Origin: Amphiscolops sp. MND2022 | Lineage: Eukaryota | Assembly (NCBI GenBank): GCA_964187785.1 | Contig: OZ076412.1 | Location: forward strand, 65,906,001 to 65,970,000 | Length of the DNA: 64,000 nt | Direction of reading: 5' to 3' | Shown here: positions 3 to 31,012 of the stretch, in pieces | Layout of the letters: each line of letters begins with the position of its first letter | Numbering within the stretch: the stretch's first letter is position 1 | Notes under the pieces: model-generated | The model's database searches: none | The model's input: the letters and a program-made list of their open reading frames with translations, nothing else | Told to the model about the DNA's origin: nothing | Translations under genes and position numbers: made by a program

Positions 3-3000
3 GCAGAACAAAAAACGCGACCCACGCTGACGCTATCGCAACTAAAAGAGGAATTATGCAGAAACGTAAAATATACTATCGCAGCGCGACCGCTCCCACA
101 TTTCACGAGAGAAGACGAAACGAAGCTGGCCCCAATACAGAAAGTCAAAACCGTTTCTCCGGTGCCGGTAGCCATTAACGTAGACGGTGTAGATATGAAA
201 TTTGACGCTATCGTAGTCTTAGAAGGTCACTTCCCTCAGGGATTGTACTTGGGCCGCCAGGAGTTGCGATGTTATAACATCGGAGTGCAAGATGCCCAGG
301 GGGAGGCTCGCATTGACGAACGAGCATCCCTGGTGGTTGCCTTTGGCAACACGATCCAGGAACCAATACCCTTGTACGGGATGATTGACACCGGTTCCGG
401 TGTCTCCATTCTCTCCCTCAAGGCCTATCAAAAGATTGCATCACCCCACGCCTTGAGCCTCCTACCATATGACATCCAACTGTATGCCGCCAATGGTAAA
501 ACCATCAACACCATCGGAATTGCCGAAAATGTTAGCTTCCAGTTGGGCGGACATACCCTTCGAACCAATTTCATAGTCATTGCCGATCACCTAGGTGCCG
601 AGGACTTCTTACTTGGCAGGAACTTCTTGCGCACTTACAACGTTCTCATGGACCTGACGGCCATGAGGGTCACCATACGAGACCCCAAAGCGCCACGCCA
701 CTTCAAACCCGTCCATGAGGTAAGTGACCATGAGCCATCCCTAGTGATATCCACCGAAAGAGTAGTCCTAGGCCCTTATGAGCGCAAACTGGTGCGAGCC
801 CAAGTTATTTCTCAAAAGCACAACGAATACCTTTTCCGAAACGTAATGATTCGCCCCCAGGGGGTATATAAACGATCCCCCTTTGTTTCAGAAGATACAT
901 TGACGTCTGTTGGAGATGAAGGCATTGTCTTCATAGCCGTACGAAACACTACCCCCTCTGAAAACGTAACCATTCAAACCAAAACTGTCCTCGGTAAGGC
1001 AGAAACTACAAACTTTGTGTTGCAACCTGTGGCTGCCGATACGGCAACCGAAATTGATAAACCTTTGTTTGAACAAGTTAATAGAGTTTATACCGATGAG
1101 TGGTTAAACGAAACGAGTTCCGAATATAGTTCCTTTGCTCAAAATTTTTTGTCCTCTACTGAGATATCTGAAGAAGGATTGTCGGAAAGCGAGAGGCGTG
1201 CTCAGACTGACCCACAGTTACTGAAACCTATACCAGGTCCAGACCTCTCTTCTGTCCTTTCTTCATGGGGGGAGGGAGCGAGAGATCAACTAGCAAGCGT
1301 CCTGAGCGAGTACGATGATCTTTTTATGAAACATAAAGCTGACATAGGGAGATGCAAAATAGCCAAACATCGTATAGAACTAGAGCTGGAAGCTATCCCG
1401 CATAGAGAAGGCGCTCGGCGCATGTCCCCAGATAAGGCAGCAAAGGCTAATCAAGAGGTGCGGAATTTGCTGGCCCTTGGCCTAATTCAACCCTCCTATT
1501 CACCGTGGGCAAGCGGAATAGTCATGGTCAAAAAGAAAACAGGCGAACTTCGCTTCTGCTGTGACTTCCGACCGCTCAACGACGTAACGGTCAAGGACGC
1601 GTTCCCATTGCCCAGGATTGATGAAAGTCTATCCCGGATAGGCAATGCGAAAATTTTCACAAGTATTGACCTAGCGTGGGCCTTCTGGCAGATACCGCTA
1701 AAGAAGCGCGATAGAAGGAAAACAGCATTTGCCTGCGAACTGGGCTTGTTCGAATGGCGGCGCATGCCCTTTGGGCTATGCAATGCATCCGCCACATTTC
1801 AGCGCTCCATTACACGAGCCCTGCAACGGATCCAGCAACGACACGGGAGTGTCGTCATGGCTTACATTGACGACATAGTCATCGCCACGGAAACCATAGA
1901 AGACCACATCGTACGAATCAAGGAAGTATTCGAGTGTCTCCGAGAGGCTGGATTCAAAATGCGTGCCGAGAAATGTGATTTCATGCGCACGGAGACAAAG
2001 TACCTGGGGCGAGTGGTGTCCTCGGAAGGCATCAGACCAGACCCCGAAGCAATAGTCAAAATCCAAGAATGGATGCCCCCGAGAAACAGAGAGGAGCTTC
2101 AGAGCTTCCTAGGGTTCGCAAACTATTACCGGGACTTTGTACCGTTTCATGCAGCCAAGGTGCAACCCCTGCAGGAGTTACTCAAGAAGAGTCAGCATTT
2201 CCACTGGGAAATAAAACACCAAGAGGCCTTCGATGCAGTAAAGGAGGCACTAGCGAATGCGACCGCCTTGGCAGCCCCAAATGAAGACGGACGGTTCGTG
2301 CTCGATACCGATGCTAGTGCGGTAGCGATAGCTGGAATCCTGCACCAGGAACAAGAACACAATGGGAAAACTATTTTACGGCCAATAGTCTTCGGGAGCA
2401 AGTCCCTGACAAAAACGCAACTGAACTATGGAGCACCCAAGTTGGAAATGTACGCAGTATTTTACTTCATAGAGAAATTCCATTCGTATCTCGCAGGCCG
2501 AGAGTTCACGCTCCGCGTGGACAACCAGGCCCTGTCGTGGCTCAAAACGTACTCCATGGACCAAGCCATGATAGGTCGCTGGATAGCCCGTCTGGATCAA
2601 TATAACTTCAAAACGATCCACCGACCTCGCACACAGCATCGAAACGTGGACGGCCTCAGCAAACGGACCAACGACTATGTGCACCGAGAGAAAATCCTTG
2701 AGAAGTTACCGGAAGTGAGTGAAGGATTCAACTTCATGACCAAAGAAGACTATGAAGCACTTCCCACCGTGCCATACTTTGACAAACACGGACGCCCAAT
2801 ACCAAACCATCCAGAGCTCCCGCCGGAAGCTCGAGCCCAACTACCACTGCTGTATATCTTGGGAAAAAGGCCCAAAACGAGCTTGCAAGAACCCCCAGTG
2901 AATGATGCCCCGTGGTACCCCCAAATACAGTGGGAAGCGACACCCACCACAGATGAGGATCACCGACCGAGTCACATCCTCAGCATCACGACCGAAGTGC

Positions 3001-6000
3001 CACCGGCACGCCTAGACACTGGAGAACCTGATCCTGTGCTTGAAGGGATGCCACCCGAATGCCGAAGGCAAGCCCACGCCCTTAGAACAGTCGGAACAGA
3101 GCTGCACGAACACATTCTGACTATACGTGGCCTCAAGGACCTGCACCTAGCACAAAATAGGGACGTGCACCTCCTAGCGCTTAGGAAACTCATGAACGGC
3201 GAACCACTAGAAGACACAATGTTCCCCGAAGACGTGCAGGACTTCGCGCGACGCTACTTCCATCAAAAGAAAGACCTGCTCTTCCTGAACCCAGACGACA
3301 TCCTCTGCGTCAACTACGTTCCGCAACAACGTGCGCTGCACGTGCGACCGTGCATGATAGTCATGCCACAACTATACCAACACGAGATTCTGTATAGGGC
3401 ACACGACGAATCGGGACATCAGGGCGTAGGGAAGGTGCTAGCAAGAGTACAAGAGCGACACACCTGGCCGGGCATCAAGCGTGACATAGTCAATCACATC
3501 AAGCACTGCTTAACCTGCCAGCAGACTAAACACCCCGCCGGGAACCCCTGCTACCCCTTGCAGAACATTAACAGCAGCAATTTCAATGACCTAGTACAAT
3601 TCGACCACCTCAAACTATGCAAGACCGAATCGGGAAACACCGGTCTCTTGGTAATGATAGACCACTTCACGAAATTCGCCGAAGCTGTCCCGTGTGCCCA
3701 CGACGAAAATGATGCTCAAACCACAGCAAAGATCATCCTTAATAAATGGTTCGCCAGGCACAGCACTCCAGCACGCATGCAGTCCGACAATGCCACGAAT
3801 TTCACAGCTGAAATCGCACAAGAGCTAATGAAGGCTTCGCAAGTCACTAAAGTGACATCCACACCAGCGCATCCCCGAGGAAATGGACTCGTGGAAAGGC
3901 AGAACCGAACGTTACTCACACTGCTCAGAGTCTACACTTCGCGACGAATGCAGGATTGGGATGAGCACGTTGATGGAATCCTCGGTGCGTACAATTCAAC
4001 TAGACACGCAACCACGGGATTCTCTCCCTATATGCTCCAACATGGAGCCGAAAAATCCATTCCCTTGTCGTTCATCTACCCAGAATTTGTTGCGCGAGGA
4101 TTCGACTCCAAAGAGGAATTCGTAGAGCACCTTCTAGCCAGACAACAGGAAATCCATGAACTCGTCAGAAGAAATACACACCAAGCACAGCTACGGCAAA
4201 AGCTGAAGTTTGACCGCCACCTGAAGGCCAAAGCGCACGCCGTAGGCGATGCGGTGTGGGTATTCTGCCATATCATACCCAAAGGTGGCACCCGCAAGCT
4301 GATTCGCGCATGGCGTGGACCCCACAAGGTGACTGACGTGTTGCAGGGCGGACGATTATATGTGTTAGACACTGGCCAAAAGGTCCATTACGAAAGATTA
4401 AAAAAGCACGTGCCTGCCCCTTGGGACTGGGCCGCACACCAGCCCTTTGGGCCGGATCAAAACGTAGCCATCATTGCCGATCCGTACGTAGAAGAAAGCA
4501 ATGAGGAGATAGCGTCCGACATCTCTCAAGACTCTTTTCTACCGGAACAACTTCCGGAAGCATCGTTCGAAATGGAACCAACAGGATCGATTCCACCTCG
4601 TACCATTCAGACTCGTACCCAAACGGCACTCGAGCAAGGAATACCCCGAAGAAGATTCAGTCACTTCGGATACCCCTCTGACTCAGATTCCGAAAGAGAA
4701 GAAAATGAGCCGCCGATCCAGAGCCCACCACCGCCAGTAGTGTTCCCCGACTTGGACGACCTAGAACCACTGTACTCCGACCAGGAGGAAATTCAGCCAG
4801 CCGTACCTACAAGTCTGATACCATCACCCTCAGGGACCTCGGCCCCACTACTATCCAATCCGTCCCTGACGGATACCCTGAGTAACTTTCCCTTGTTTGG
4901 CCCCCAATTGGAGGACCCAATCGACCCGATAGAAATTAAACCAAAGTCAGGAACTGAAGACGAAGAAGAGATAACCTATCACAGTCCAAGCCATTGCTCA
5001 ACACAACCCGATACCACGAATCGCAGAGGACGGCCTCGAGGCCGACCACCAGGTCGAGGACGACCCCGCGCCATACCATCCAGTAGAACCACGACATCGT
5101 CGCGAACCCAAACCGCACGATCCAGAAGAGGCCCTAGGACAAGAATGAGCACTCGTGCACCCCCTCGAAGGCTAGACCGAGCAATGACTCTGCCAGAAAT
5201 ACCCGAAAGCCAACAACCACCGGAGGTCCAGAATTCAGAACCGAGACCATCATCGCAAACATCACGATATCAACTGCGAGCTAATAGAGCACCACGATAC
5301 AAGTGTGGAACCTGTGGTTCCCGCAACTGTAGTTGCGTCAAGCATCTGACTCGCGATTCACCGGACAACCGATTGGCCCGGGGAGCGGTAGTCCCTGCCA
5401 GGGATCTCCTGATAGCCAGGACACATTGTCACCCACAACATGAGATCTTAACCGTACAAGCCCAGCGAGAAAAAGTGGAGACACCCCCGCTAGTACACCA
5501 TTTGATCATCACGGTAGAAAAAACTTTCACTAGTGTGGAACGGGAAGTGATACCACCGCTGGAAGAAACACTCATAGCAATGCACGCGACATCTCCCTCC
5601 GACTGCCCAACTTACCGATTCAAGGAATGGACACCACCCCATCGAGGCGGTCTAGAATTCACCCTACATGCCATCATACCGCCCTTGCCACCCTCGATGA
5701 CGTTCGGCGAGCTAGCGAAAGAGGATAGTAGCACGGAGATGATTCGCTGTATCACTGCACACCAACTGTGGGAGAAATATCGCATTGCCTCCCCGCCGGG
5801 AGACATATACCAGCCCACCAATGGATGGTGGCTACTCGTCACCTCTCTAGACGCAACGACATTGGTATCCCCCACAACTCTATTAATGTGCTTAGAAAGC
5901 TTGCGTACTGTAACAGAACCCGAGAACACGCTCTGTTTCCACATGGCCGACATTTATCGTGGCAAGTTCCTAAGCCAACATTGGCTACAATTAATAGCGG

Positions 6001-6740
6001 TCATCTTCTGCCGACAGGCGAAGATACACTTCTTGGATCGACAATCTTATACACCGGAAAAACCCGTCACAGTTAGCGAAGCACTCTCGATAGTACACGA
6101 TTGGTCATCTACCAACATGGGAGATAGACCGCTACGCCGAACCGTCTGGGAAGACCGAAAAGCAATCTTGCAGCATTTAGCACCCCAACCCACTGATGAT
6201 CAGAGCAATACCACCGGCAAATGGCTCATAACCCAGCCCAAAACCAGACCGAATTACCTACCTTGGATAACTTATGACAATACAGATATCCTGCAGGCAC
6301 CTGGCACTGTGATACTATGCTGCCCTGCGGATTTGCTCTCTTACTCTGCCACGATCCGTTACGTTATTCGCGAATACGGTCAAGAAAACATATTTCGCCT
6401 AAGACCGTCAGTTGGCACCGCAATTCGCTTAGTCCGCTCGCCAACTGCACCCTGGAATAACGAAATCTTCCTTCTATGTACCAGAGCATCGAACAAGCAT
6501 CCACTCTTACATGAAGTACTCCATGCGTGTTTGACAAATTTGATAACCCAGCTCCATCGAAACCACATTACCAGAATCCACTTGCCCATCTATGATCCCG
6601 AGCGATCGATGAACCTCCTACCAGCCTGGTACGCCACGCTACGCGACCACTTTGCAGACCACAATATTGCAATAATTTTGCACGATCGCGTCTATGTCAC
6701 GATAGCATCGGTTACCTCAGCCAATTTTGGCGGTAGTTAA
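3..6740 (+). CDS. pol: Gypsy Pol polyprotein, 5'-partial (2245 aa visible), with long C-terminal extension
   Basis: The frame is open from nt 3, so the track's start at 162 is an internal GTG. Protease IDTG (D at 387), RT YIDD (1863-1874), RNase H LDTDAS...EMYAV...DNQAL, integrase HDESGH...CLTC, FDH/SDN/VER and WRGPH (GPY/F) motifs. No stops. Confidence 0.95.
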   Translation, partial: AEQKTRPTLTLSQLKEELCRNVKYTIAARPLPHFTREDETKLAPIQKVKTVSPVPVAINVDGVDMKFDAIVVLEGHFPQGLYLGRQELRCYNIGVQDAQGEARIDERASLVVAFGNTIQEPIPLYGMIDTGSGVSILSLKAYQKIASPHALSLLPYDIQLYAANGKTINTIGIAENVSFQLGGHTLRTNFIVIADHLGAEDFLLGRNFLRTYNVLMDLTAMRVTIRDPKAPRHFKPVHEVSDHEPSLVISTERVVLGPYERKLVRAQVISQKHNEYLFRNVMIRPQGVYKRSPFVSEDTLTSVGDEGIVFIAVRNTTPSENVTIQTKTVLGKAETTNFVLQPVAADTATEIDKPLFEQVNRVYTDEWLNETSSEYSSFAQNFLSSTEISEEGLSESERRAQTDPQLLKPIPGPDLSSVLSSWGEGARDQLASVLSEYDDLFMKHKADIGRCKIAKHRIELELEAIPHREGARRMSPDKAAKANQEVRNLLALGLIQPSYSPWASGIVMVKKKTGELRFCCDFRPLNDVTVKDAFPLPRIDESLSRIGNAKIFTSIDLAWAFWQIPLKKRDRRKTAFACELGLFEWRRMPFGLCNASATFQRSITRALQRIQQRHGSVVMAYIDDIVIATETIEDHIVRIKEVFECLREAGFKMRAEKCDFMRTETKYLGRVVSSEGIRPDPEAIVKIQEWMPPRNREELQSFLGFANYYRDFVPFHAAKVQPLQELLKKSQHFHWEIKHQEAFDAVKEALANATALAAPNEDGRFVLDTDASAVAIAGILHQEQEHNGKTILRPIVFGSKSLTKTQLNYGAPKLEMYAVFYFIEKFHSYLAGREFTLRVDNQALSWLKTYSMDQAMIGRWIARLDQYNFKTIHRPRTQHRNVDGLSKRTNDYVHREKILEKLPEVSEGFNFMTKEDYEALPTVPYFDKHGRPIPNHPELPPEARAQLPLLYILGKRPKTSLQEPPVNDAPWYPQIQWEATPTTDEDHRPSHILSITTEVPPARLDTGEPDPVLEGMPPECRRQAHALRTVGTELHEHILTIRGLKDLHLAQNRDVHLLALRKLMNGEPLEDTMFPEDVQDFARRYFHQKKDLLFLNPDDILCVNYVPQQRALHVRPCMIVMPQLYQHEILYRAHDESGHQGVGKVLARVQERHTWPGIKRDIVNHIKHCLTCQQTKHPAGNPCYPLQNINSSNFNDLVQFDHLKLCKTESGNTGLLVMIDHFTKFAEAVPCAHDENDAQTTAKIILNKWFARHSTPARMQSDNATNFTAEIAQELMKASQVTKVTSTPAHPRGNGLVERQNRTLLTLLRVYTSRRMQDWDEHVDGILGAYNSTRHATTGFSPYMLQHGAEKSIPLSFIYPEFVARGFDSKEEFVEHLLARQQEIHELVRRNTHQAQLRQKLKFDRHLKAKAHAVGDAVWVFCHIIPKGGTRKLIRAWRGPHKVTDVLQGGRLYVLDTGQKVHYERLKKHVPAPWDWAAHQPFGPDQNVAIIADPYVEESNEEIASDISQDSFLPEQLPEASFEMEPTGSIPPRTIQTRTQTALEQGIPRRRFSHFGYPSDSDSEREENEPPIQSPPPPVVFPDLDDLEPLYSDQEEIQPAVPTSLIPSPSGTSAPLLSNPSLTDTLSNFPLFGPQLEDPIDPIEIKPKSGTEDEEEITYHSPSHCSTQPDTTNRRGRPRGRPPGRGRPRAIPSSRTTTSSRTQTARSRRGPRTRMSTRAPPRRLDRAMTLPEIPESQQPPEVQNSEPRPSSQTSRYQLRANRAPRYKCGTCGSRNCSCVKHLTRDSPDNRLARGAVVPARDLLIARTHCHPQHEILTVQAQREKVETPPLVHHLIITVEKTFTSVEREVIPPLEETLIAMHATSPSDCPTYRFKEWTPPHRGGLEFTLHAIIPPLPPSMTFGELAKEDSSTEMIRCITAHQLWEKYRIASPPGDIYQPTNGWWLLVTSLDATTLVSPTTLLMCLESLRTVTEPENTLCFHMADIYRGKFLSQHWLQLIAVIFCRQAKIHFLDRQSYTPEKPVTVSEALSIVHDWSSTNMGDRPLRRTVWEDRKAILQHLAPQPTDDQSNTTGKWLITQPKTRPNYLPWITYDNTDILQAPGTVILCCPADLLSYSATIRYVIREYGQENIFRLRPSVGTAIRLVRSPTAPWNNEIFLLCTRASNKHPLLHEVLHACLTNLITQLHRNHITRIHLPIYDPERSMNLLPAWYATLRDHFADHNIAIILHDRVYVTIASVTSANFGGS

Positions 6741-7071
6741 GAACACGTCTCGCTCTCTTCTTGGCAGATCAGGCCACTGGCCTTTTGCATTGCCTTTCGT
6801 AATTTTGAAGCGCCTTAAAATTTTAACAAAGCCGCGCCGATAAGCGCAAATTTTAGTAATAATCACTAGAAACTTTTTAACCTCGTATTTGTGTGTTCGT
6901 CCTAAAAAGTTTGACTGCCCACCCGTTTATGTAATGTTTTATCTCCAACTGTGACTTGTTTTTCAGTTTTGTCCTGTTGCCTCGCCTCTGCGCGGCCCCC
7001 CTACTTATCACGCCAAATCAGTCTTGCCATCACAATCTTCGGTGCTAAATATTCCTTTATCATCGTTTCCA

Positions 7072-10000
7072 ATGGACCCATCTGCGCGACACCGCCTGCC
7101 TACACCCCAGAACGCTGCGCGTGCCCAACCATCCATAAGGAACGATCCACCTCCAATGATGAGCGAAATAGATGGTCGAGTCGACCAACTAGCTCTTGTC
7201 CAAGACACTCTACTAAACGGAGTGACACCCACAATGATCGCTGGCTTTGCCATGATCATCGCCCAAACCCAAGCCCAGGCAGAGTACCCTGATGTTAGCT
7301 TCACCATCACCAGCCGAGTCGGCCCGATAGAACGCTCTGCCACTTTTCGCGACGGTACCTGGCAAGGGTATGACTTGACCCACAGCCTCATAGATCCTCG
7401 CTCCCACTTAGTCTATGGAGAGCCTACTAGGCCTCCCATGGACCAAGAACGATCACTCCGCATTTCACAATCAGCACTACAGACGCAAACTACGACCCCG
7501 TTGCCCTCACCGCACCCGGTGCAATTCAGCTGCACACTGCCAATCATGCCACCCCCAGTGCTAACACCGCCCATGCCCCTGGCTTCGGAAGGCATTCGAT
7601 TACTCACCACCCCATCTTCTACCTTCATGCCTCCATCTACCTTTCAGGGGGGAGGGGTGCAAGTAGACAATACAACAAGTGCTGCCCTGAGCGAAGAACA
7701 GCCCAGGAGAACGGTGACGTTCAAGGACTCATATGAAGAATTAACTCAAACGTCCTCCAGAACCGAATCACAAGTCTCGGAACCTCTACAAGTCTCAGAA
7801 CCGGCCAGTCTAGTAGGCTTCCAAATGGACCCACAATTCCGAGAACGTCAGCGAGAACAACAAAAGGCTGAAAGTAAGGCGGCCAACACTGTGGTAGACC
7901 TCCGGGAGAAAATTAAAGCTGGAAAGCGAGCCAGAGAGGCAACCACGCAAAGTAGACAATCGAGCTCGACCAGTATCTCGCAACCCACGTCTACCTCACC
8001 CACACAACCAGAAATAAGGAGACCTAGAATAACGCACGAACTCCTAACACATACAGAAAAACGGCAGCTGGATATCACTGCACGCGACGCACTGCGTCTC
8101 CAGCGGGAAATACCAACCACAACGTCACCAGAAGACCCTCTACGACAGAAATTCGAGATCGCTACGGGAACTGGGGACCTCGCCACAAGGCAGAAAATAG
8201 AGAAAGCCACAGTGGGAGTACTCTACAATCGCCCCGTCAAGAAACCCGTGTTTACTCGAGACGGATGCCCCCCATGGTTTAACCGCATGCGAGCAGAACT
8301 GGAGAGAGTAAACTCATCATACATGCGTGTTCCTAACAACTTCCTCCGACAGCGCCCTGGCCGCTTCGACGAAGACCGCTTGCGAACTAAAAACTATGCG
8401 AGGGACCCCATTACAATCCTGCCCATGGGAAAGGACCTTTTACAGAAAACCAGAATAGCCTTCTTCGTCGACTCGACGATGAAGTCTTCATTCAACTCCC
8501 ACAATACCCTCATGGACGTCAGAATACTGAACATGCCCTGTACAACACTGAACGAAATGGCAGAGGTGACCGATAAAATATTCACCCAAGCGGGAACAGA
8601 GACTATCCCACTACCTCCGTTGTTGGTATATTCGAATGTGATAGACCACCTCGCTCTGCGAGGGACCCTGGAATTCTTCCGGCCAGACCATGAAAGGTTT
8701 ACCGAGGGGTTCATCACCGACGAAGTTACCAACTACGTGGAGACGATGGCGAATATTGCCCAAGCTATGCGCAGAAGGAAAGCTACCACTGGAACGGTAT
8801 TTATGTCACCTCCAGGCTACGTGCACCTTCCCCGGACCCTTCAGCAATTCTTGTACCTAATAATGGAGGCAGCGTACGCAAGGGATCTGGCTTTCTACAT
8901 TGTGGCCCCTAATTTACGCATCAGCAATAATAGCTGGCGCCCCTGTGAAGCCTCATACCCAGCCTTCATTGCTGAAGTCTCAAAGGCCCTTCAATCATAC
9001 GTCGGTTACCGCGGCAATTCCCAAATGGTGGCAGATGAAGCAACAGCATTCGATTATGGGATGGAAATGGCTCGTCGATCATTGAACGAGCGTGGAGACC
9101 GAATCGTGAATGATCCAAATGAAAGTGAACGCAATAACCTGGTGGATAACCTCTGGTTTGAACGCCGGGACGAATCGACTATAGACGAGAAAACGCATGA
9201 GCCCAAGTTCCACAAGGAACTCACGAGTCTGATGAAGGAAACCGAAACGATTCAAAGTGATAGAAAGAATTCCTCTATCTTCCCTATAGCACAAATATCA
9301 TTGGACGCGGAACCTGGGCAAAGATCACCCACATTAGCCATGTTGTTGATACTAGCTCAAGATATTGTACGAAGAAATATTCAAGAGCCGACACACACGT
9401 ACCAAACATGGCACGATCAACTACGAGAACCTCTGGGCCAAGTCGCGGACCGACTAGGCATAACATTTCCCGTATTTCTCCACAATATCTCTCCCTTCTG
9501 GCTTCCTTCCCTGGTACAGGCCGAGTACGGCCTGGATGAGCAGCGAATGCGACTATACATGGAGGCCATGGAAAGAGCGACCGTTAGTGAAGTGCTAGCG
9601 TATCTGATGGCCGTGGGGTTGACCATGATGTACCGAGGACCGTCAGCCCTCATACAAAAGTTCGTGCTCAACAAGGGAGGCTCAGCCCTGTTCAGCTATC
9701 TAGTCTTTTCGCAGAATCAAAGAAGTTGGATATCTGCGCTCATTGAAACTCTGGACCCAGCGGGTTCCTTAAAGTTAAAAGCGCAACTAAACTTAAACAT
9801 TCAAGCACTTCTAGTGTGGATTTACTCCACCTGGGTCAATGTCTCTGGCATTATGCATCCTCTGGATGAGTGCCCAGCTATTAACCGAGACCCCAATCAG
9901 CTTCCAGGGTTCCTGTTCCCTACACAAATTGCAACGTTGATGCTCGTGGAGACAGAGGACCTGATACCCCTCATTGCTCCTGTGATCTGGCCTATCTTCG

Positions 10001-10272
10001 GCGCAGTTATGGCCCTGCGCTATCCAACGCAGGCCCTGCGAGTGGCAGCGGTGAGCCCATCCCTCTCGATTCTACACTTCGTGACCTCTAATGGGCCCTT
10101 TCAGGGTCCCACCTATCAATCAGTGATACACAGCTTTGCCAACTTGCGACCTCCCATGGCATACACCGTAATCAAAGACCGCCAACAAGTGGAGCACAAC
10201 TATCTTACGTTGATCAAGGCGCGAGCACGCAGCTCGCTCCCTTTGCCAATGGAAATCCACCCGGTAGTTTAG
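7072..10272 (+). CDS. Retrotransposon accessory ORF2 (1066 aa from first ATG) with SGNH/GDSL-hydrolase-like domain
   Basis: Long stop-free ORF between pol and PPT. FFVDS (Ser at 8473), MPCTT, SNVIDH and SWRPCEASY resemble SGNH blocks I, II, III and V. Pro/Ser/Thr-rich N-terminus, no signal peptide. Confidence 0.75.
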   Translation: MDPSARHRLPTPQNAARAQPSIRNDPPPMMSEIDGRVDQLALVQDTLLNGVTPTMIAGFAMIIAQTQAQAEYPDVSFTITSRVGPIERSATFRDGTWQGYDLTHSLIDPRSHLVYGEPTRPPMDQERSLRISQSALQTQTTTPLPSPHPVQFSCTLPIMPPPVLTPPMPLASEGIRLLTTPSSTFMPPSTFQGGGVQVDNTTSAALSEEQPRRTVTFKDSYEELTQTSSRTESQVSEPLQVSEPASLVGFQMDPQFRERQREQQKAESKAANTVVDLREKIKAGKRAREATTQSRQSSSTSISQPTSTSPTQPEIRRPRITHELLTHTEKRQLDITARDALRLQREIPTTTSPEDPLRQKFEIATGTGDLATRQKIEKATVGVLYNRPVKKPVFTRDGCPPWFNRMRAELERVNSSYMRVPNNFLRQRPGRFDEDRLRTKNYARDPITILPMGKDLLQKTRIAFFVDSTMKSSFNSHNTLMDVRILNMPCTTLNEMAEVTDKIFTQAGTETIPLPPLLVYSNVIDHLALRGTLEFFRPDHERFTEGFITDEVTNYVETMANIAQAMRRRKATTGTVFMSPPGYVHLPRTLQQFLYLIMEAAYARDLAFYIVAPNLRISNNSWRPCEASYPAFIAEVSKALQSYVGYRGNSQMVADEATAFDYGMEMARRSLNERGDRIVNDPNESERNNLVDNLWFERRDESTIDEKTHEPKFHKELTSLMKETETIQSDRKNSSIFPIAQISLDAEPGQRSPTLAMLLILAQDIVRRNIQEPTHTYQTWHDQLREPLGQVADRLGITFPVFLHNISPFWLPSLVQAEYGLDEQRMRLYMEAMERATVSEVLAYLMAVGLTMMYRGPSALIQKFVLNKGGSALFSYLVFSQNQRSWISALIETLDPAGSLKLKAQLNLNIQALLVWIYSTWVNVSGIMHPLDECPAINRDPNQLPGFLFPTQIATLMLVETEDLIPLIAPVIWPIFGAVMALRYPTQALRVAAVSPSLSILHFVTSNGPFQGPTYQSVIHSFANLRPPMAYTVIKDRQQVEHNYLTLIKARARSSLPLPMEIHPVV

Positions 10273-11157
10273 CTACATACCCCCCTCAATCCAAATAATG
10301 GAGCAGTGGCGACGTTTGACGGGTGGGACGTGCCAATTGTCCTGCGTATCTTGAGAGCAATTATCCAAAGATTGGGTGGTCGTAGAAAAGGAGAAGAACC
10401 TACTAGGTTATTATATCCCTATGCGTGTGACACTTCCAGAGTATATTGTGCAAGAACAGAACCCCGTGAGCATACCGCCAGAATCTTAAATACCATTACG
10501 TGTTGGGCCCAGCCAGAACTCGTGGACCTCGCTATACACCAGACCTTCCAACAGCTGCCAACAACCATTCCAACAGTAGCAAAAGAACCAAGCAGGAAAG
10601 ATTTGCCCGTGAATACTGACGTTCCCAGCAACCCGCGTATGGCGCTAGAGATATTCGTACGTCTGCATGGTCTCCAGCGAGAACGCACTCGAGCTGTGGG
10701 CGAAGAATACGCTAGGGGAATACGAACGTTCAAACAACTATTCACCCAATATGGTCACCAAGAATTAGCGGACGGCCTGCCGAACTTGGAGTCAATCGAA
10801 GCCATCCCAGGGATCAGCGATTTGAGCGAAGCTGCCTCTGGCAGCTCTCGCACCGTCCTTCCCACACCCCACATCATTCAAGACACCGATGAATTATTGG
10901 TGGAAGGGGTACAAGATGATGTGCCAAGCGTCATGCCACCATCAGAGGAACCTATGACTGACAACAACTTCACGCTCTCTGATGCCACTACTCCTGTAAG
11001 AGACGAAGTGGAGACCAATATCTCGAACATGGAGGCAGCGGACATAGAGTCAGAGCTCAACAACTTACTGACCATAGATGAAGAATACCAAAATACGGTG
11101 AACGCCATGGGCAGCACCTCCATGCAAGAAGCCCCACAGAACCAGCTGTTGGAGTAA
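10273..11157 (+). CDS. ORF3, in frame with ORF2 beyond a single TAG (readthrough extension or nonsense-split C-terminus of ORF2)
   Basis: The same frame continues CTA CAT ACC... directly after TAG 10270-10272 with no stop until 11157. First in-frame ATG only at 10639. Confidence 0.65.
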   Translation, partial: LHTPLNPNNGAVATFDGWDVPIVLRILRAIIQRLGGRRKGEEPTRLLYPYACDTSRVYCARTEPREHTARILNTITCWAQPELVDLAIHQTFQQLPTTIPTVAKEPSRKDLPVNTDVPSNPRMALEIFVRLHGLQRERTRAVGEEYARGIRTFKQLFTQYGHQELADGLPNLESIEAIPGISDLSEAASGSSRTVLPTPHIIQDTDELLVEGVQDDVPSVMPPSEEPMTDNNFTLSDATTPVRDEVETNISNMEAADIESELNNLLTIDEEYQNTVNAMGSTSMQEAPQNQLLE

Positions 11158-11743: not shown

Positions 11744-12461
11744 TGTAACGTCCACCAGTCAACACCAAATTTTCGATGAAAAATTCGATCAAGAACCAAA
11801 AAATGTGCGAATCAAAATGGCCGACCTGGCAGGTCCTTAAAGCCCATAAAATGAAAGAAGAGAGCACGTGAACAAGAGGAACGATAGGAGATAATGAAGA
11901 GAAGAGGCAAAACAACTGATGACATGAAGATCCACACGGGACAGAATACGACGAACGCTACCCGGTGCTATGTCATCCCTGAGAAAGCAGAACCATGCTA
12001 GAATGGCGTGACTGGATCCCCGAAAATCTACAAACAGTAACTGTGTTTTCACTTGGGGCTTATCCCCTTTTGTTTTGTTAATTTATTATAATGCATTTTG
12101 TTATTTTCCCCATGTCTGACCTTCTAGGTCGGCATTTCATGCCCATAACTGTCGAAATGACATTTTTCGAATAAACACTCTTTTGGACCTCGGAAGTATG
12201 TAGGAGATGGCAGGAATACACTAAAGACCTTAGGATACGTTTTTACAGGCTTGTGGGGCGTGTCCGGACTTTGAGAGTGCCGGCACGTCGCCTCGGAGCT
12301 CTAACTAGAGGAGCCTCCTTAGACGTTAGAAAAGTCCCCCATGGAGACCATTTTGGGATCAAAAACTAGTGTCTAGGTATGTAGTAAGACAACGGTCTCC
12401 TGTTTAAGCATCCTAGGCATTGTCCCTCTTCCTAGATGTGCGCCGCTAGCCGGACGTTACA
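11744..12461 (+). repeat. 3' long terminal repeat, 718 bp
   Basis: Starts TGTAACGTCC and ends GGACGTTACA (perfect 10-bp inverted termini); AATAAA at 12170-12175; follows the PPT. The second LTR is not in the window. Confidence 0.85.
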
Positions 12462-16987: not shown

Positions 16988-19900
16988 ATGGGAGGCAAAA
17001 GAAATAAACGTTCAAGGAGAGTGGAACCTCAGTCTTCAGACAGAGACGAAGACACCTCAGAAACAACATTCACACAAGGTAATGCGACTTTAGTTAATGT
17101 TTCTTAAATTGTTTCTGAAAAAATTTCTTGACAGGAACTTAGGCAGCGAACTAACAGAGACTTCACAAATTGTGAAATCTGAGCAAATAGAAACAACAAC
17201 TTAAGCACTGATGAAGAGGATGCTGAGAAGAACAGGCCTGGTCCTTCTGACCCAGAAAACAATTTCTCAGGATAAAACACGCATCAATATTGAAACAGAC
17301 AAAGAAAAAAGTCAAGCTAATCCCTTCAATTGTTCAGATACGAATGAACTAAGACAGCCTTCAACTCCTCTGGGAGTTGTAAAAGAGTCGTTAGACGATA
17401 CTATCATAATTCTTGGAGATTTACCGGAAGCCGGAAATCACATGGTGACAGTACCTATCAAGAACATGCTGAGACAAAGTTGTGGCAATTCAAACACTAC
17501 AAAGACACAGGGACCACAAGCAGAACACCTTTTTCTCGTGCATCCTCAACCAACAGACCCCGTCAGCCACATTGCTCAAGCAATCCAGATGCTAGCAAGA
17601 AAAAACCAAGATAATCAATTTTCCACACACAAAGTACACTCACTTTCAACCGAAAACTGGAGCAAAACGAGAAATTTGAGTATTTCGAAGACCTTCTTCC
17701 CAGAACACTGAAAATTCAACCACATCTCACTGAAAAGATAAAAATCAACCATGTTCACACCCAAAGCAATGAATTAGCGTTGAAAACTTCAAGAACATCC
17801 AATCAACTGCAACTACTCTTGACGACATCTTAGTAGTCTTCCGCAGAAAGTATGTCAAACGTGAGCATTCAGCCTTCAGCAAAACATAGATTCAACAGGC
17901 TTTTGTTCTAACCAGAAAATCAGAAACTACATTCATGAAGATCTCTAAAAAGCGCCGAAAAAAGTTTGAAGCAGCACCACAGTTGATTGAAAGTCTTTTA
18001 GATGGAAAAATGCCCCCTCATTTGGAGAAATATACTAACCAAGTGTACCTTGAAAATGGTACAAACAACTAAATTGTACGACTTCTAGAAATTAAAATGA
18101 AGCTCAATAGAAAAGAGTTCCCAAAACTTGCAAAACGACAAAAATGTATAAAAACCCAGATGTACCACGATGTTCTCATTGTAACAATCCCCGTCACGAA
18201 AAACACAATTGTTACTTTGGAGCAAACATGAAAAATTGCCCGCTCAAGTGGACACTCACCAAAACTCAACAAACATTCGATTGGGAGTACCAAAAACAGC
18301 AAAACCATTAACCCACGAAACCCGAAACTTTTGACATCGAAGGATTTAAACAAATGAAGCCACGCCTTCAAACAAAATCGCCACAAAAACAAAACTCAGA
18401 CTACTGGCAGCATCGTCTGAGCCCAAAACCCATAAAAACCACTGTACTGTAAAACGACTAAATGACTACAAAATCACGACTTTCAACACCTGACACCATG
18501 CTGAGGGCCTGTACTAAATATTCAACGATGTCCCAGATATTTACAAACTACAAAATTCTGAACGCGATATTGAACAAGAAACACAAAACCAACACTGTAC
18601 AACTTCACAACCTCAAGAAACACAAACTGACCACCTGAATCAACATTCTACATCAACAGCCCAAACTGACAAAGAATTTCTCGAAAATGGTTTTCAATCA
18701 TCTCACATGAAGGCAATAACATCATGTATTTCAACCTTTCTACACATCTTACCATCAAAAAGAAACCCAGCGTGTTCTATTTCCCCATGGATTTCAAAAA
18801 ACTCACTCTGAATGGACTCATTGACACAGACGCCCCAACCAGCGTCATTTCTGAAGCAGACCTCAACGAGACTAACCTTCTATCAAACGAAGCAAGAAAA
18901 GGTACTGGCACCGAATTATCAAGTCATGGTAACAAATGGTCAATTTGAACGGCCCATTGGAACTGAGCGCCACCCTTGCTGACAAAAACTACCTCACCCT
19001 TCAACCTGAAGAAATTCTCGCAATCTCTAGCAAAATGCCACACTTGAGACCACAATGCAACTAGAATTGTCACACTGTATTCACATATGGCGGAACATGA
19101 AAGCAGTTTTATTACTTTTTCGTCGAGTACGGTCAATAACAACGCAGTGGACTACCAAGTGATCAATATCACTGACAGGCCTTACTTACCCATATGGCCG
19201 AGTCCTAACTCCAGAGCAAATCAAGCATCAAACACGTCCATCAACTCTCACCTTTATAATGCACCAACACTTGGAAACACTGATCTGTATCTCAACCAAC
19301 TGATGAAAGTTACTCAACCACAAGATGAACATGAATCATACTGGTTCCCAACACAATATCTAGGACGAACTTCTGGAACTCAAACAACTTGAGCAACTAA
19401 ACCCAATTGACAATGAAGAATCATGAAAGAAAATCCTCGGCAACTTCGACTGGACGGACACCACTCTTAGCCCGCTCAAAAAACAACACATTGAAAACAT
19501 CCTGGTACAAAATCGTGAAATCTTCTCAAGACATCGGTTTGATTTCGGTACCAACAGGCAATTTGAGGTTTAACTGACTCCAAATGATGATGGACCAGCC
19601 TACAGCCAAAGCCTTCTCACTTCGATAAACCTCAAGGACGACATAACTGTTGAACTGTCCTTTCTTCATAGTTACGGAATCATCAGGACATATACTACAG
19701 GACATAAATATACAAGCCCTATTTTTGCACAGAAAAAACTGAAGTGACGTCTTCGTCTCTTGATGGATCTGCGCAAATTCAACAATCTTATCACACGAGA
19801 CTACGAGAACAACAACCACTTAATTAGACCGTTGTCGGATGCGTCACAGCTAATGGCCGAGAAGCTCTTCTGTGAACTTGATTGCTCCCAGGTATACGAT

Positions 19901-22900
19901 TGTTTACTAATTACGGACTACAAGTCATTACATAAGCTGGCCTTCAATTTCGCAAGCCAAACGTTTGCTTATCGACGTTTTGCTCAAGGACTCATCGATC
20001 ATTGCCAGCTTTCTCATCATTAATGAGAGAGTATTTGGACAAGGCAATCAAAGCTGACCAGCGTGCTTAATACGTTGATGCTATTGGTAGCCTTTTTGTT
20101 TGCCTTTTTGTAATTGAGGCGAAACTTTTTCTGAGGTGATGGTTCGTCCCGAGTCGACTTGTTTGACCTAAAAATGACATTTAGCCATCGTGAGTTTGAG
20201 GCCTGCTAGTCTGGCGCATTCAAAAATTGTTTTAATGTTGATGCAGAATTGGAGGGAATCGTTTGCTACTATACTAACGCCATCGTATTGAGCACAGTCG
20301 TCAGCTTTGATTTCCTTGCCCAAATACTCTCTCATAAATGATGAGAAAGCTGACAATGATCGATTGAGTCCTTGAGCAAAACGTGGATATGCAAATGTTT
20401 GGCTAGCGAAATTGAAGGCCACCTTTTGTATTGACTGGTAATTCGCCATTTGTAAACAATCGTATGCTTGGGAGCAATCAAGTTTACAGAAGAGCGTATC
20501 AAGTTGAGAAGACCCGGGGGTCTACCGAAACTACATCCTCGTTGTATGAAAAGCTACCGCCTTTCGTCAAACTATTCAACGAAACATCAAAACTGCATAC
20601 CGAACACGGTTCTGGACACGTTCATTGAATTGAACCAACAATTGGAAAAACCATGCAATCTCGCCCTTAAACAACGGATAGAGAGAAACAACTCATCTTG
20701 ATGATTGATGCCAGTTTTACAACAATTGGATGAGTCATCGTGGTCGAAAATGATTCAAACCAAAAGCTCCAATCCAGAAGGAATACCAAAACCCCGATTG
20801 CTTTTGGGTCCTAAACAAATTTTCCAACATAACTCAAAATGTCAATATACGCAGAAAGAGATCTTAGCAGTTTCTTTTGCGTTTTTTGAAATAGGGCACC
20901 TAACGTGGGGAAGTGGTTTTCCTGTTATAGTTTTTGAGGATAACCATTCGGTAACACGCTCCTTCGAAACTAAGATATTACCACCACCCTGTGGAACGCC
21001 TGTGACTATGTACTACAGTATAACTTCATGATAACACATGTTGCCGAAGCCCTGAAAACTGCTGCTGACTTTCTATCAAGAGCAGAGGTTAACCCAAACG
21101 AAAAACTTTAAAAGAACATACCAAACGACGTTACAACCAAAACAATCGAAGTAAACATACAGTCCACAGGAGTTGCTGAGGAAGAACACTTCTACTTACC
21201 CCCTAGGAAGTCAACCCCCCCCGCTGAAGTCAACCCCCTCGGAACAATAACTGTGGGACGGAAACGAAACATTACGCTAAACAGCAAAAATGGAAATCCA
21301 CAATGACCCAGAAAAAAGTGTCAAAATAATCGACTATAGAGAAAGTCACTTCAAAGTCAGCGCAAAATTCCGCTTAGAACAGAACGATGACCAAGTTCTA
21401 CGCAATCGTCGAGCCAAAATCGAAGGTGAACCCTACGATGAAACTGAATTCACTCAATATTACCGATACGAGCACTACCTGCAAAATGTAACCCGCAAAG
21501 AAATGTAACCCGCAAAAGGTATTCTAGCAATGAGATACCACAACAACACGGATGTGATCTCACTTTATCAAATTCTCTCCCCCAAACAACTCCTAGATGA
21601 ACTCCTACATACTCTTCACGGGCATAACGCAAACCATCAAGGAATCATTAAGATGATCCAAGAAGCAAGACTGAAATACTACTACCTATGCATTGCCAGA
21701 GACATTCGAACATGGGTCACAAAATGTCAAAAGTGCGTTCCAAAACAACCGCATCAATAATGACCTCCTGAAAACAGAACTACTTAATTGTCCTGAATGG
21801 GACCTGGGTCCAGAGGATATCTTGCAAATGGATATTCTTCCAAGTCTTCCCGCAAGCGGTGGGTATGACATCATCACAGCAAAAGACGTGTTTTCACGCT
21901 ACTTGTTTGCATACCAGGTCACAAAAATCACTGCCCCAGCGGTGGCAAGGATTATCATGGACACTTTGAGTAAACACACATATTTGCCCACGACAATCAT
22001 TACCGATATGTGGACTAATTCAACTCACAGGTTACCAAGAAAGAAGACGCAGTCCTAAACACAGAACTCAAACATGCCACCACAAAACATGCAAGAACAA
22101 TCAGATTGTTAGAACCTAAACATGCGACAGTCAAAGCATACCTAAAAGCCGCCACTGGAGAAATCAGAAATAACTGGCACAAATTTCAGCCATTGGCAGT
22201 TTTAAATCACAATACAAAGTACCATGCAACACTCGGATGTGAACCGACATTAGTCTTCCATGGAAAAATTCCACATAATATTTTGGATCTCAAGCTTGGA
22301 TACAACCCAAATCCTCATTACCAACCCCAAACTGAGGTAGCAGAAGAAGTCCAAAGACGAATTGCATTATTTCATAATCAGACGAAGAAAAACAATGCAA
22401 TCTCTTGAATATAAAGCATACTATGACAGAGAAGCAGACGACTGTTGCTTTATCTTGAACCCGAAAGCTGACACACAAGCAACAAAGGTACTCTTTTGTG
22501 AATTTCGATGAGTCGGTTTTTTTAAAGTCGAAAAAGTCTTACCAAACAACAACTATACTGTTAGCAGACGTGGCACAAACAAGACGCAACTCCTTCGTAT
22601 TAGATTAGGGAAAAACATCCCGCAAGTTCCTTTTGCGGATAACTTTGCCAGGGAAGCTGATTGGCAAAAAGAAGATACATTTACCACTCAAGATGGCCTA
22701 TATGCCCACACTTGGGACACTAATTCTGAATGTAGTCCATTTGATACCGAAATGGAAAACTGAGACCAACAAGATGACAGTTGAATATAAACGTACTTCT
22801 CAACCCGAAATGTACCGCTTGCCCACCCGCGGTAAGTTTCAAAACAGTGGGAGGATCCCCGCAGAACGACCTGCTGTGAATGACAAGAAACTCAGATAGT

Positions 22901-24570: not shown

Positions 24571-27500
24571 CTACAGATAGAACAGTGTATCGGCCAGGCC
24601 GATATTTGGTTCTGTATTTGCCAGATTGTCTCCAGCCAGAGCAGCCAGCTTGTGTGCATACTGGCACACGGAGGGCACTCGAATAGCTCCGGTCCAGTTA
24701 AAGTACATATGACATAGGTGGAACGCCAATTCCATCAGACGACCGTTGTCTTTGCGGAAGGGGGTCTCGTCGAACAGCACGTTGAAGTGAGTGGGTGTCA
24801 CAGTTCCCTGTCTGGACGAAACAGGCGACAGGAAGAAGTCGTACCTATTCGCCTTGGTCAGCGTGTCGTACACCACAGTACCTAGAAAAAGATGAGAATT
24901 GAGACATTGAACGTGAAATATGTGGAAATATATGAGTTGAATGTGAGTAACTGTAAAACTGATACGTGAAAGTGCACTACTATGTATGACGTTGTGAAAA
25001 TTTTACATGCGGCATCGGAAGCGAAATCATTTTAAGTGGAATTTAATCAATTTTGCACGTTTAAAGACATGTCTGTGGAATCTAAGGGGTTACACGCACA
25101 GAATTGTGTTTGTAGAAATTTAGCTTGTCTATGCACTGTAATGATGAACTAGTTTCCAAACCATAATGTTTTGAACATCTTTTGAAAAAAGTTCTTCGAG
25201 TTAGTCGAACATCTTTTGAAAAAAGCATATCTAGCTTATATTTCAGAAAAATCGATAAAACTTGCTGCATGTTAAGGACAAGTCACTCCGCTTCGCTTTT
25301 GCGTTAACCCTAAATGGACGATTGGGACTATTTCGTGCCAATGAGTTTGCGCAAACTTCTAAAGGCACTGGCTGAACGTATGGTAAAGAAAACTCTTGAA
25401 TATGATTTTCAGACGATATTACATATTGCACGCATCTTCAATAATTATTGATTTGATGTCTCTGAAATGGAGACCGAGACCTTATATGAGCAGACTCGTA
25501 GCCGATTTTGTGATCTGAAGATAGCAATACCAAATGACTAAACAAGTACCAACCAGGCATGGGATTTTGGAGACCGTCGCGGCCTCGCGAGAAGAAGCGC
25601 TGGGATATTCGCTTGGTCACGATGACGTAACAGAGCTTGGCAGGGCAGCCCATTTCCGACAACACCTGTCGGGTGGCCTCCACTTCAGTGTTTTGCACGC
25701 GCTGCAGTTGGCCCTCGCCCACTCCGTCCCGGAACATGACGATGTACTGTGGGAAGACCTTGTTGTATTGCTGGTACTTCGTGAGCGCCGAGGTGACTGC
25801 AGTTTTCAACACATGGACCTCCTCTTCATTGTTAGTGAATGCCCGAGAGTGGTATCGGGACAGAGTTTCATTCACAGAGCTGACGAAGCCCACTGCGGAC
25901 CTGCGGCGACTGTTCATACCAGCGTGGTACACATCCATGCCAAAAACTTGCAGTCCCGGGAGTTTGAAGTCGGTGATCCAGGGTTCGCCACCCAGCTTCG
26001 CATTGATCTGCATGACCAATTTGCTGACCACGCTCATGAGTCCTAAAGAGAAGAATCTCGATAATTAATAAGATTGTCAATTTCTGATCAATTCAAATTA
26101 TTTATCAATCATTCGGAACAAATCCGGGAATAACATTTCACCATTTTCCAAAGAGATATTCTAATTATTAAGGTCACAATTGATAATTTACATAAAACAC
26201 GGAGACAGATTAAAATTACGCCTCGTATTGGTCGAAACATGAAAAAAGAGGTATGGCATCTTTCATAAGAATCGAACTGTCTTTTCATCAGAGATAAAAC
26301 CGAAATTGAATTAACCTGCTGGCTTGGACAACGTCTTATTCAGGACACACTGACTCGGCACAGGGTTTTCGATGTAGCACACTTTCTTTATTGCGTTGTA
26401 GCTAAAACCAATTAACTCTCATTAGATGAAGTTATGTCCAATTTGACCAATGACTTAACCATCCGTTAAAAAACGGTTGAAAAGTTCAGATTATCAATCC
26501 ATCGGTTACACCTTTTCGGTAGAAATATACTTAAAGTCAAGGCGATAATACAGTGCTTATAAACAAGTTTTTTCAACTTATCACTGATAATCGGTAGCCA
26601 ATGTTACCTACAAAAGCTTTTGCATTATACTTTTGTACAAGATTTCATGATAAACAATGTTAAGTGAAAACACGATCAAAGTGTCACAATTCAGTATTGC
26701 TTATTTCTGTGATGAGTTTCGAAGGGAAAATTGCATAATACTTTCGTCACTAATTATTTGGTTGAACAAATCAATCCAATGATGAATCCGTTATTTAGGA
26801 CTGCGCTAATGTTGAAAACAGAGACAAGATTGAGATATCGGGTTTTTTCATTGAGGCTGAAACTACAATCGGAAAATTGGTACATTGCGATGAGTAATAA
26901 ACGAATCAAAATAAAAGTGGGCCGAATCGCTTCGATGTAACTTACCGATCGGCCCGGTTGTCCGGTAAGACGAAGACGCAGAGTTTCAAAGGCATTCCCC
27001 TGGTAACTGCGGCCGTCATCTCCCTCTTTATGGCAGCGGTCCATTCGTCGGACCGAGGAGAGTTGATGAGCACCGCTTGGCAGCTGGAGAACTCCACTCC
27101 GAAGCCTCGCCCCGCTTGAATCATCTTGTCGTTCAGGGTGCCAGCAATTTGTTCATTCTGTCGAACGTAGAACACGGCGTAACTGCTCACGGCGATTGGA
27201 CACCTGAACCTGCAGTTCTTCAGAACTTGACCAAAGTCAGCCGCATTTTTATTGTAATCCACAGGTTCACGGAATACAATGTTGGGTGCGTTCAATCTGC
27301 GTCCTAAAAAGTCCAGCTTGAATTGAAAAGATGACCGAAAGTGCTAATACTTTTCCCATTCAGCACATTTGTGTTCCATTTAGCATTCCAAACATTGTAG
27401 ATGGCACCCAATATTCTGTGTGGCTTGAAAATAGCTCTCCGTTTTTCTGTGTCTTAACCTATTTTCAACAGATCAATAGGAGCTTCAATTTCCGGTCGAA

Positions 27501-30186: not shown

Positions 30187-31012
30187 TGTCCAACAGAATG
30201 TTACTCAATCTACTTTTTGAAACAATTGATCTGAAAATAGGTCAACGGTCATCAAAAAACTTACAGGTAATAAAAGATAGGATGTTCTTTCATTCGATAT
30301 GAACTATTTACAAAAAAAAAGGTTAAGGCTGTATAAGCGATATTGCAACATTTTAAGCCAAATTTCCCCTCTGAACTACGCTACAAAATAGCAATAAATA
30401 AGTCCTCACAGCAATCAATAAACGACTTCGTTTGCTCTGATTAAAACCTGTTACACCGAAACAAGTCGGTAACGGCATAAGTCGACGCCCGGTTAAGGCT
30501 CAAAAAACGCAAAGTACTTCAAATAAGGGAATCTCATTGGGCTAGGAAAAGCTTCTTTCTAACTTCAGAAATGCTAAATGGTTATTTTAATGAAGTCTCA
30601 GAGGGCTTTGTGTTTGAAAGTCTTTTCCTTTCAATGAAGGAGTCAGAAACAGTTTGGTGAAATGAAGAATTTTTGAAAGGTCACACAGAACCGAAGATCA
30701 ACCCACATATTGCTTGAAACCCAAAAAGGTATCTTGAAACATGAAAGCGAGGACACAAAATGAATGGGAGAACCCTTGAATAACTTTCGCATTTGACACG
30801 TTTATTCTCACCTCGACCGAATTTTAAAAAAAAACAATAATTTTTAAAAAGCAGGGTTATCCAAGAAAAATGTCGAAATTGCCCTGAGACCCAAGAACGA
30901 AATACAAGTGCGTTAGTTCATAACTAGCATTCAGAGCCTAGTAAAAAATCAGAATTTCTTCACATGTTAAAAGAATCTAGATTAAGGGGAAAACAAGGGG
31001 AAAAGAAGTTGA

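Follow-up and report, generated by a model that had tools for sequence, protein, structure and literature searches.

Predicted tandem macrodomains of the TARG1 class with a rebuilt pocket at the Pol C-terminus of a Ty3/gypsy retrotransposon

What lies behind the integrase of the Ty3/gypsy retrotransposon found in Amphiscolops sp. MND2022 (contig OZ076412.1, positions 65,906,001 to 65,970,000), and what might it contribute to the element? The window, by which we mean the whole stretch of 64,000 nucleotides analysed, starts inside this long terminal repeat (LTR) element, whose gag lies upstream of the window, and its first open reading frame (ORF; 3-6740, plus strand), the 5'-open Pol part of a single Gag-Pol ORF, reads through 2245 aa with no internal stop and runs far past the integrase. 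A preliminary description, made from the sequence letters, had proposed that Pol ends in tandem degenerate TARG1/Poa1p-like macrodomains, a pseudo-enzyme pair that might serve as a decoy, as a chromatin or damage reader, or as an anti-defence module. We find two copies with a predicted macrodomain fold, in which the catalytic and phosphate-loop residues have been replaced by others that are nearly invariant in the family.

Identification of the fold

The motifs on which the proposal was built are all in place (TDILQAPG at 6282, VILCCPADL at 6309, IREYG at 6366, VGTAI at 6411, IFLLCTRA at 6465 and IHLP at 6576). Scanning the tail with Pfam, NCBIfam and PHROGs gave nothing meaningful, and Pfam Macro (PF01661) had no match at E<=10 in the window segments or in four aligned tails, so that the Macro HMM search proposed as a check fails here despite a real fold. 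Single-sequence and 4-sequence searches of PDB sequences with the tail likewise gave 0 matches at E<=10. TARG1 was reached by the 99- and 87-sequence profiles only, and through copy 2 only: the 99-sequence family profile, run against 177,635 PDB sequences, returned five at E<=10, all of them TARG1 and covering the full copy 2 domain, the best with an E of 5.7e-4.

The predicted structures extend this identification to both copies. The AlphaFold model of the 420-aa tail (5478-6737) has a pLDDT of 89 and a pTM of 0.62, and on structural boundaries it places a shortened copy 1 at 5685-6041 and a full-length copy 2 at 6258-6692, both on the plus strand. For copy 2 TARG1 takes every one of the first eight Foldseek ranks (E 1.5e-7, TM 0.84 by target, rmsd 2.4, 18% identity), and a VIA comparison with 48,161 chains gave TARG1 a Z of 16.0 (rmsd 4.1, 143 aligned), followed by DarG at 14.9 and Poa1p at 11.6, with the other macro classes represented by MacroD1 and macroH2A at 9.9 each. 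Copy 1, folded alone (5664-6128; pLDDT 85), also had TARG1 at Foldseek ranks 1-8 (E 5.1e-6, TM ~0.6); its VIA Z for TARG1 was 12.1 (rmsd 3.2, 118 aligned), tied with 2afc at 11.8 and followed by DarG (10.9) and Poa1p (10.6), the other macro classes reaching 8.0 at most.

Both copies thus belong to the macrodomain superfamily, with a Foldseek probability of 1.00 and macro folds in the top VIA rows, and by a ranking of Z made without a tree the models fall into the ALC1/TARG1/Poa1p structural class. Because both segments model as macrodomains when AlphaFold and Foldseek are applied to each, the tandem TARG1/Poa1p-like pair proposed at the Pol C-terminus stands, and the residue mapping given below agrees with it.

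Profile comparison indicates, moreover, that copy 1 and copy 2 are homologous. Aligned by HHalign they score a probability of 83.9 (E 7.7e-6, 83 columns), against values of no more than 1.56 in 30/30 column shuffles and 1.73 for the reversed control; a single-sequence BLAST of one copy against the other was not significant (E 0.25).

The ligand pocket

In TARG1, as described in PMC6397177, Asp20 serves the adenine, the GxG loop the diphosphate, and Ser35, Thr83 and Asp125 the distal ribose, while Lys84 is the nucleophile; the same source gives the TARG1 signature as TKx(30,35)Px[IL]GxGxD. This signature occurs in 0/375 of the collected family proteins. We mapped the pocket residues on 14 tails picked for diversity (25-84% pairwise identity) and made a second count in 256 BLAST-aligned proteins, mostly close relatives and with broken copies included, in which each denominator is the number of proteins that reach the position.

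Copy 2 keeps an equivalent of Asp20, possibly for structural reasons, in 14/14 tails and 221/232 aligned proteins, together with those of Thr83 and Pro118 (11/14 tails each). Around these the pocket has been exchanged. Pro stands at the Ser35 position (14/14 tails; 222/239 aligned proteins), Ala at Gly43 (14/14), Arg at Lys84 (13/14, the exception being Lys in P0273; 205/214), Asp at Gly121 (14/14; 182/188), Glu at Gly123 (13/14; 174/188) and Arg at Leu124 (14/14), and Asp is found at position 125 in none of the 14. Loop 3 of copy 2 therefore reads D-x-E-R-S/P/G instead of GxGLD. Copy 1, some 25 residues shorter, has its loop-1 glycine segment deleted and no clear equivalent of Asp20 (the Asp of GDLF); it carries Ser or Ala at the Lys84 position (14/14; 240/251) and, in place of GxGLD, a loop 3 of DxYRG with the family form D/E-x-Y/F/H-R-G. 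In all 14 divergent tails both copies carry Asp or Glu at 121 and Arg at 124, and since the copies share these residues, loop 3 was probably rewired before the duplication, as the alignments suggest.

The reported substitutions at the lysine position (Arg in copy 2, Ser in copy 1) and the disappearance of the glycine loops were thus recovered in the alignments, and the term pseudo-enzyme pair suits the mapping, in which the catalytic Lys84 and Asp125 and the phosphate-loop glycines are replaced. As for whether sister copies retain what this copy has lost, Lys was found in one of the 14 divergent tails and GxGxD in none. With replacements so nearly invariant, the aligned family indicates that the loss of the TARG1 pocket residues is conserved and is not decay.

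A laboratory precedent bears on the consequence. TARG1 G123E is reported to lose ADP-ribose binding, catalysis and damage recruitment while RNA binding and nucleolar localisation stay intact (PMC5928194). Given that the Glu at 123 in copy 2 parallels this inactive variant, and that copy 1 is without the loop-1 glycines, canonical ADP-ribose binding and hydrolysis by the pair appear unlikely, as judged from sequence-profile registers. The suggestions that the pair is a poly(ADP-ribose) decoy, a damage reader or an anti-PARP eraser are accordingly disfavoured, Glu being found at 123 in 174/188 proteins and TARG1 G123E being blind to the ligand as described in PMC5928194. By defining residues neither copy aligns as a TARG1 member, though by fold both are of the ALC1/TARG1 class.

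Organization of the tail

Following the integrase, the tail consists in order of an acidic linker, a basic GRP region, a Cys cluster, a 70-aa subdomain, the first macrodomain, two helices, the second macrodomain and a terminal strand, all on the plus strand. The Pro-rich linker (4428-4982) has 36 D/E vs 8 K/R in 185 aa. Motif inspection of the basic region (23 K/R vs 6 D/E) located three GRP cores at 5022-5072, which we take to be AT-hook-like and which had no match in a Pfam scan. The string RGRPRGRPP is present in 63/70 long family proteins, and each of the five lineages checked has 2-4 GRP cores, including P0412, the most divergent of the long relatives, whose tail is only 30% identical. 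The four-Cys cluster CxxCxxxxCxC (5295-5336), a putative metal site, is found in 70/70 long family proteins and lies at the equivalent place, with different spacing, in P0412, where the order of linker, GRP repeats, Cys cluster and tandem macrodomains is retained as a whole.

The subdomain that precedes copy 1 (5478-5687) is predicted as strand-helix-strand-strand with a pLDDT of 85-94; it has invariant residues, includes FxEWT and GLEF motifs, and lies outside the span of the domain-level fold matches by VIA. Predicted secondary structure places a two-helix connector and a pre-strand, with invariant W, G and P, between the copies (6048-6257), and the terminal strand LHDRVYVxIA (6678-6707), past the TARG1 fold, is conserved in 11-12 of the 12 divergent tails that reach that far.

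Conservation and relatives

Relatives were gathered as 59 long proteins of 2377 candidates, 148 shorter ones of 4948 (120 listed) and 362 cluster representatives (150 listed); the listed homologues are ENA proteins, save one JGI/IMG 'hypothetical protein', and the best 150 of the 362 representative matches are all fragments of the gypsy tail family. The relatives are single Gag-Pol ORFs of ~3000 aa, and the ORF at 3-6740 aligns with one of them, the 3091-aa P0011, from residue 848 at 77% identity. In comparison with P0011, identity is 66-73% in the macrodomains, 40% in the spacer that precedes them, 71% in the acidic linker and 96% in the reverse transcriptase; against P0058 the corresponding values are 46% for each macrodomain, 13%, 42% and 83%. 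Because the macrodomains diverge faster than reverse transcriptase and integrase, and on a par with the acidic linker, these comparisons point to a constraint that is real but moderate.

Some 60 positions are nevertheless invariant or nearly so among tails down to 25% identity, and 55/59 long matches cover >=94% of the tail in open frame, a proportion biased by the use of the tail as bait. Four long relatives (P0059, P0060, P0068 and P0113) go out of frame at one shared point in copy 1; in the window sequence these early ends follow a C-run, and they may be homopolymer sequencing slips or a shared lesion.

A search for long proteins with the two most divergent tails gave one match among 4110 candidates, P0412, whose pocket is likewise disarmed, and no intact ancestor was found among those 4110. 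Comparison of the tail with 50,697 phage records by tblastn gave no match. The best Atlas matches of both copies are mostly phage clusters (0.90-0.91), with Macro clusters at 0.89-0.90, all of them leads only, and among the BFVD fold matches of the tail are insect RNA viruses and a protein of an entomopoxvirus; from shared fold alone the donor of the macrodomain cannot be named.

Possible function of the module

Of the roles considered for the pair, that of a chromatin reader, also among the options of the preliminary description, would best fit the position of the tail and its neighbouring motifs. We therefore favour, tentatively and by analogy, a module that binds without catalysis and would thereby anchor the integration complex on host chromatin or on a nuclear protein. 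An ancestor of this gypsy lineage would have acquired a macrodomain of the TARG1 class as the last part of its Pol, the pocket would have been rewired first and the domain then duplicated, and the resulting pair would no longer remove or read ADP-ribose in the canonical way. The copies, together with the N-terminal subdomain and the terminal strand, may fold as one accessory module, attached to the integrase by a long linker with AT-hook-like DNA-binding repeats and the Cys cluster. Provided that the module is retained on the mature integrase, as we infer, the GRP repeats would contact DNA while the module tethers the integration complex by binding host chromatin, a nuclear protein or nucleic acid, in the manner of a chromovirus chromodomain. 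Fusions of transposable elements with chromatin readers, and targeting by the MAGGY chromodomain, are described in bioRxiv 2021.11.30.470311; the tail occupies the position at which other gypsy elements bear such readers.

Several observations weigh against such a tether. The macrodomains are charge-neutral (10 K/R vs 12 D/E in one, 13 vs 12 in the other), and they evolve much faster than reverse transcriptase and integrase and at least as fast as the acidic linker. Cleavage of the 350-aa linker by the viral protease could separate the module from the integrase. HMMER and HHalign alignments, made without superposition, underlie the residue equivalences, and in them loop registers can slip; the adenine Asp of copy 2 is kept in 14/14 tails, so that some nucleotide binding may remain. 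Lastly, the homologue searches were baited with the tail, and the presence of the tail in every relative therefore cannot be shown.

A more specific proposal, in which we place little confidence, is that a host ADP-ribose eraser has been turned into a module for targeting integration. The copy 2 pocket, in which the adenine Asp is kept and Arg, Asp and Glu are new, would recognise a mark on chromatin or nucleic acid that is unread by known macrodomains and, together with the AT-hook-like repeats, would steer a very successful gypsy family to chosen chromatin.

The possibility of cleavage leads to the first alternative, which we regard as doubtful: once cut off by the element protease, the tail, with its AT-hooks and pseudo-macrodomains, would work on its own in the nucleus as an accessory protein. 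It would activate the LTR, or it would counter host silencing by binding a protein, perhaps as a mimic of a host macrodomain surface. The linker between integrase and module is indeed long and poorly conserved, the fast evolution is that expected at a host interface, and mammalian L1 silencing involves ADP-ribosylation according to PMC4695847; but the family encodes single Gag-Pol ORFs, and the stoichiometry of the tail is therefore that of the integrase.

It is also conceivable, if unlikely, that the pair is a nucleic-acid binder resembling the SARS-unique domain (SUD) and grips element RNA, cDNA ends or G-quadruplexes while particles assemble or reverse transcription proceeds. SUD consists of tandem macrodomains that do not bind ADP-ribose and do bind G-quadruplexes (PMC2674928), TARG1 itself binds RNA outside its pocket (PMC5928194), and copy 2 has five conserved Arg (2119, 2123, 2161, 2201 and 2229). 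The net charge of the copies is near zero, however, these Arg are matched by conserved Asp or Glu, maybe in internal salt bridges, and SUD reaches a Z of 7.1-7.7 where TARG1 reaches 12-16, which makes it an analogue and not a relative.

The kept Asp20, Thr83 and Pro118 equivalents (14/14, 11/14 and 11/14) raise a further alternative, that copy 2 is a rewired enzyme or reader of an adenine nucleotide, such as ADP-ribose on an unusual acceptor, a capped RNA end or Appr>p from tRNA splicing, with copy 1 as structural partner and with the new Arg, Asp and Glu standing in for Lys84 and Asp125. Such an activity, which would also cover the anti-PARP and damage-reader ideas, would be in keeping with the new invariant polar residues lining the former pocket, with the Lys at position 84 of the divergent tail P0273, and with the inclusion in the ALC1 class of DarG and Poa1p, which act on other substrates (PMC6397177). 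We consider it quite unlikely, given that acidic side chains occupy the place of the diphosphate-binding glycines, that the TARG1 precedents G123E and G43E are inactive (PMC5928194), and that Asp125 is missing in 14/14 tails; the Asp20 equivalent may merely cap the short helix behind it.

That the module is a functionless relic of a once-active macrodomain, carried along by the element, is highly improbable, for although its identity is below that of the enzymes and close to that of the acidic linker, and the frame is lost at a single point of copy 1 in four family proteins, the near-invariant positions persist down to 25% identity, both copies have a confident predicted fold, 55/59 long ORFs keep the module in frame, and the shared early ends after the C-run may be sequencing slips.

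The element and its surroundings

The remainder of the Pol ORF is that of a Ty3/gypsy element, with the order protease, reverse transcriptase, RNase H, integrase and the catalytic motifs, all on the plus strand. The aspartic protease (378-626; DTGS, motif at aa 129) matches PF13650 with an E of 0.0023, below the curated cut-off; reverse transcriptase (YIDD) and RNase H occupy 1527-2603 (PF00078, E 4e-36; PF17919, PF17917), and the integrase 3366-4406, with an H2C2 zinc domain (PF17921, E 2e-16), a DDE core (PF00665, E 5e-8) and a C-terminal part in which 4311-4331 is presumably a GPY/F-like motif. RNase H and the integrase zinc domain are separated by an insertion of ~250 aa (~2700-3120, plus strand; aa 868-1121) that had no Pfam match. 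A Pfam scan, carried for Chromo to E<=10, found neither Chromo nor PHD in the Pol ORF, and we do not class the element as a chromovirus.

A second ORF of the element, also on the plus strand, spans 6955-11157 (first ATG at 7075) with one in-frame TAG at 10270-10272, and family searches with Pfam, NCBIfam and PHROGs gave no match to it. Its PDB-search matches were sub-threshold repeats of designed PPR proteins, which we dismissed as an artefact. By eye, ~8450-9050 resembles what we take to be a non-catalytic SGNH/GDSL fold, a likeness that Pfam and PDB searches left unconfirmed; if it is real, the element would hold two kinds of pseudo-enzyme. GDSL ORF3s are known from rotifer LTR elements (PMC5408684). 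The putative 3' LTR (11744-12461, plus strand; 718 bp, TGTAAC...GTTACA), preceded by a purine tract, is present as a single copy in the window, and a second purine tract with a TGTAACG start at 13411 may mark the LTR of another element.

Outside the element, the window consists of AT-rich eukaryotic DNA in which there are exons of Argonaute/Piwi and DUF383/384 as well as pieces of LINEs. The Argonaute/Piwi gene exons (ArgoL1, PAZ, Piwi; 24574-30204, minus strand) lie ~12 kb from the element end, and the DUF383 and DUF384 exons (31016-34371, minus strand), presumably HGH1-like, enclose a 300-bp direct repeat of 98% identity (31587-32312) and a Tc3-like transposase piece (32416-32919, plus strand). 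Other fragments are those of a LINE endonuclease and reverse transcriptase (55126-57107, plus strand), of another reverse transcriptase (47620-48024, minus strand) and of an integrase (21675-22058, plus strand). Repeats of a dispersed family, direct as well as inverted, lie ~10 kb apart at 34992-36902 and 45731-49071, and a long MITE-like inverted repeat is found at 19859-20500.

Relation to known systems

Both copies share the compact macro fold with TARG1/OARD1 (C6orf130) and the ALC1 class, to which Poa1p, DarG and SCO6735 belong. In relation to TARG1, the equivalents of Asp20, Thr83 and Pro118 are kept in copy 2, whereas the element has exchanged or lost Lys84, Asp125, Ser35, the GxG phosphate loop and the loop-1 glycines. 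The pair differs further in its tandem arrangement, in the additional subdomain and terminal strand, in its fusion with the Pol of a retrotransposon and in an identity of 12-18%. Gypsy Pol database entries of other animals may carry an annotated OARD1-like domain, which would lower the novelty of the tail.

Coronavirus nsp3 offers another case of tandem macrodomains in a viral-type polyprotein, the Mac2-Mac3 pair of SUD, in which ADP-ribose binding is also lost (PMC2674928). SUD differs in its macro class (Z 7-8 vs 12-16) and in its origin from a cytoplasmic RNA virus, and Lys-based G-quadruplex binding has been shown for SUD. Host-derived binding domains placed after a gypsy integrase are known from retrotransposon integrases with a chromodomain, PHD or MBD, as in chromoviruses such as MAGGY (bioRxiv 2021.11.30.470311); here, in contrast, a pair of macrodomains follows the integrase at a distance of ~430 aa, with AT-hook-like repeats before it. 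Fish epsilon-like endogenous retroviruses have likewise captured a macrodomain (Basta et al. 2009, cited in PMC4977317), and by the description in PMC4977317 it forms additional ORFs there, while in the present element it is duplicated, disarmed and part of Pol. Captured accessory enzymes are known, too, in rotifer LTR elements (PMC5408684).

Within the searched literature on macrodomains in retroelements, limited to articles proper and mostly to open-access ones, we found no gypsy Pol with a disarmed and duplicated module of the TARG1 class; the fusion tables of bioRxiv 2021.11.30.470311, which fall outside that scope, may bear on this. The tail is probably an undescribed variant of a known theme.

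Significance

A domain type invisible to Pfam is here added to the few host-derived modules listed for gypsy integrases, and the family offers TARG1-class pseudo-enzymes of natural origin whose rebuilt pocket is conserved. Given that the natural Glu at 123 matches the laboratory mutation that blinds TARG1, the family tests what a macrodomain can do without ADP-ribose binding. If the module tethers integration, it would represent a new targeting mechanism, and if the pocket reads a chromatin or nucleic-acid mark, the targeting domains of retroelements would gain a new class and macrodomains a new ligand. If instead the module counters silencing, it would link the control of retrotransposons in the host to macrodomain-based signalling.

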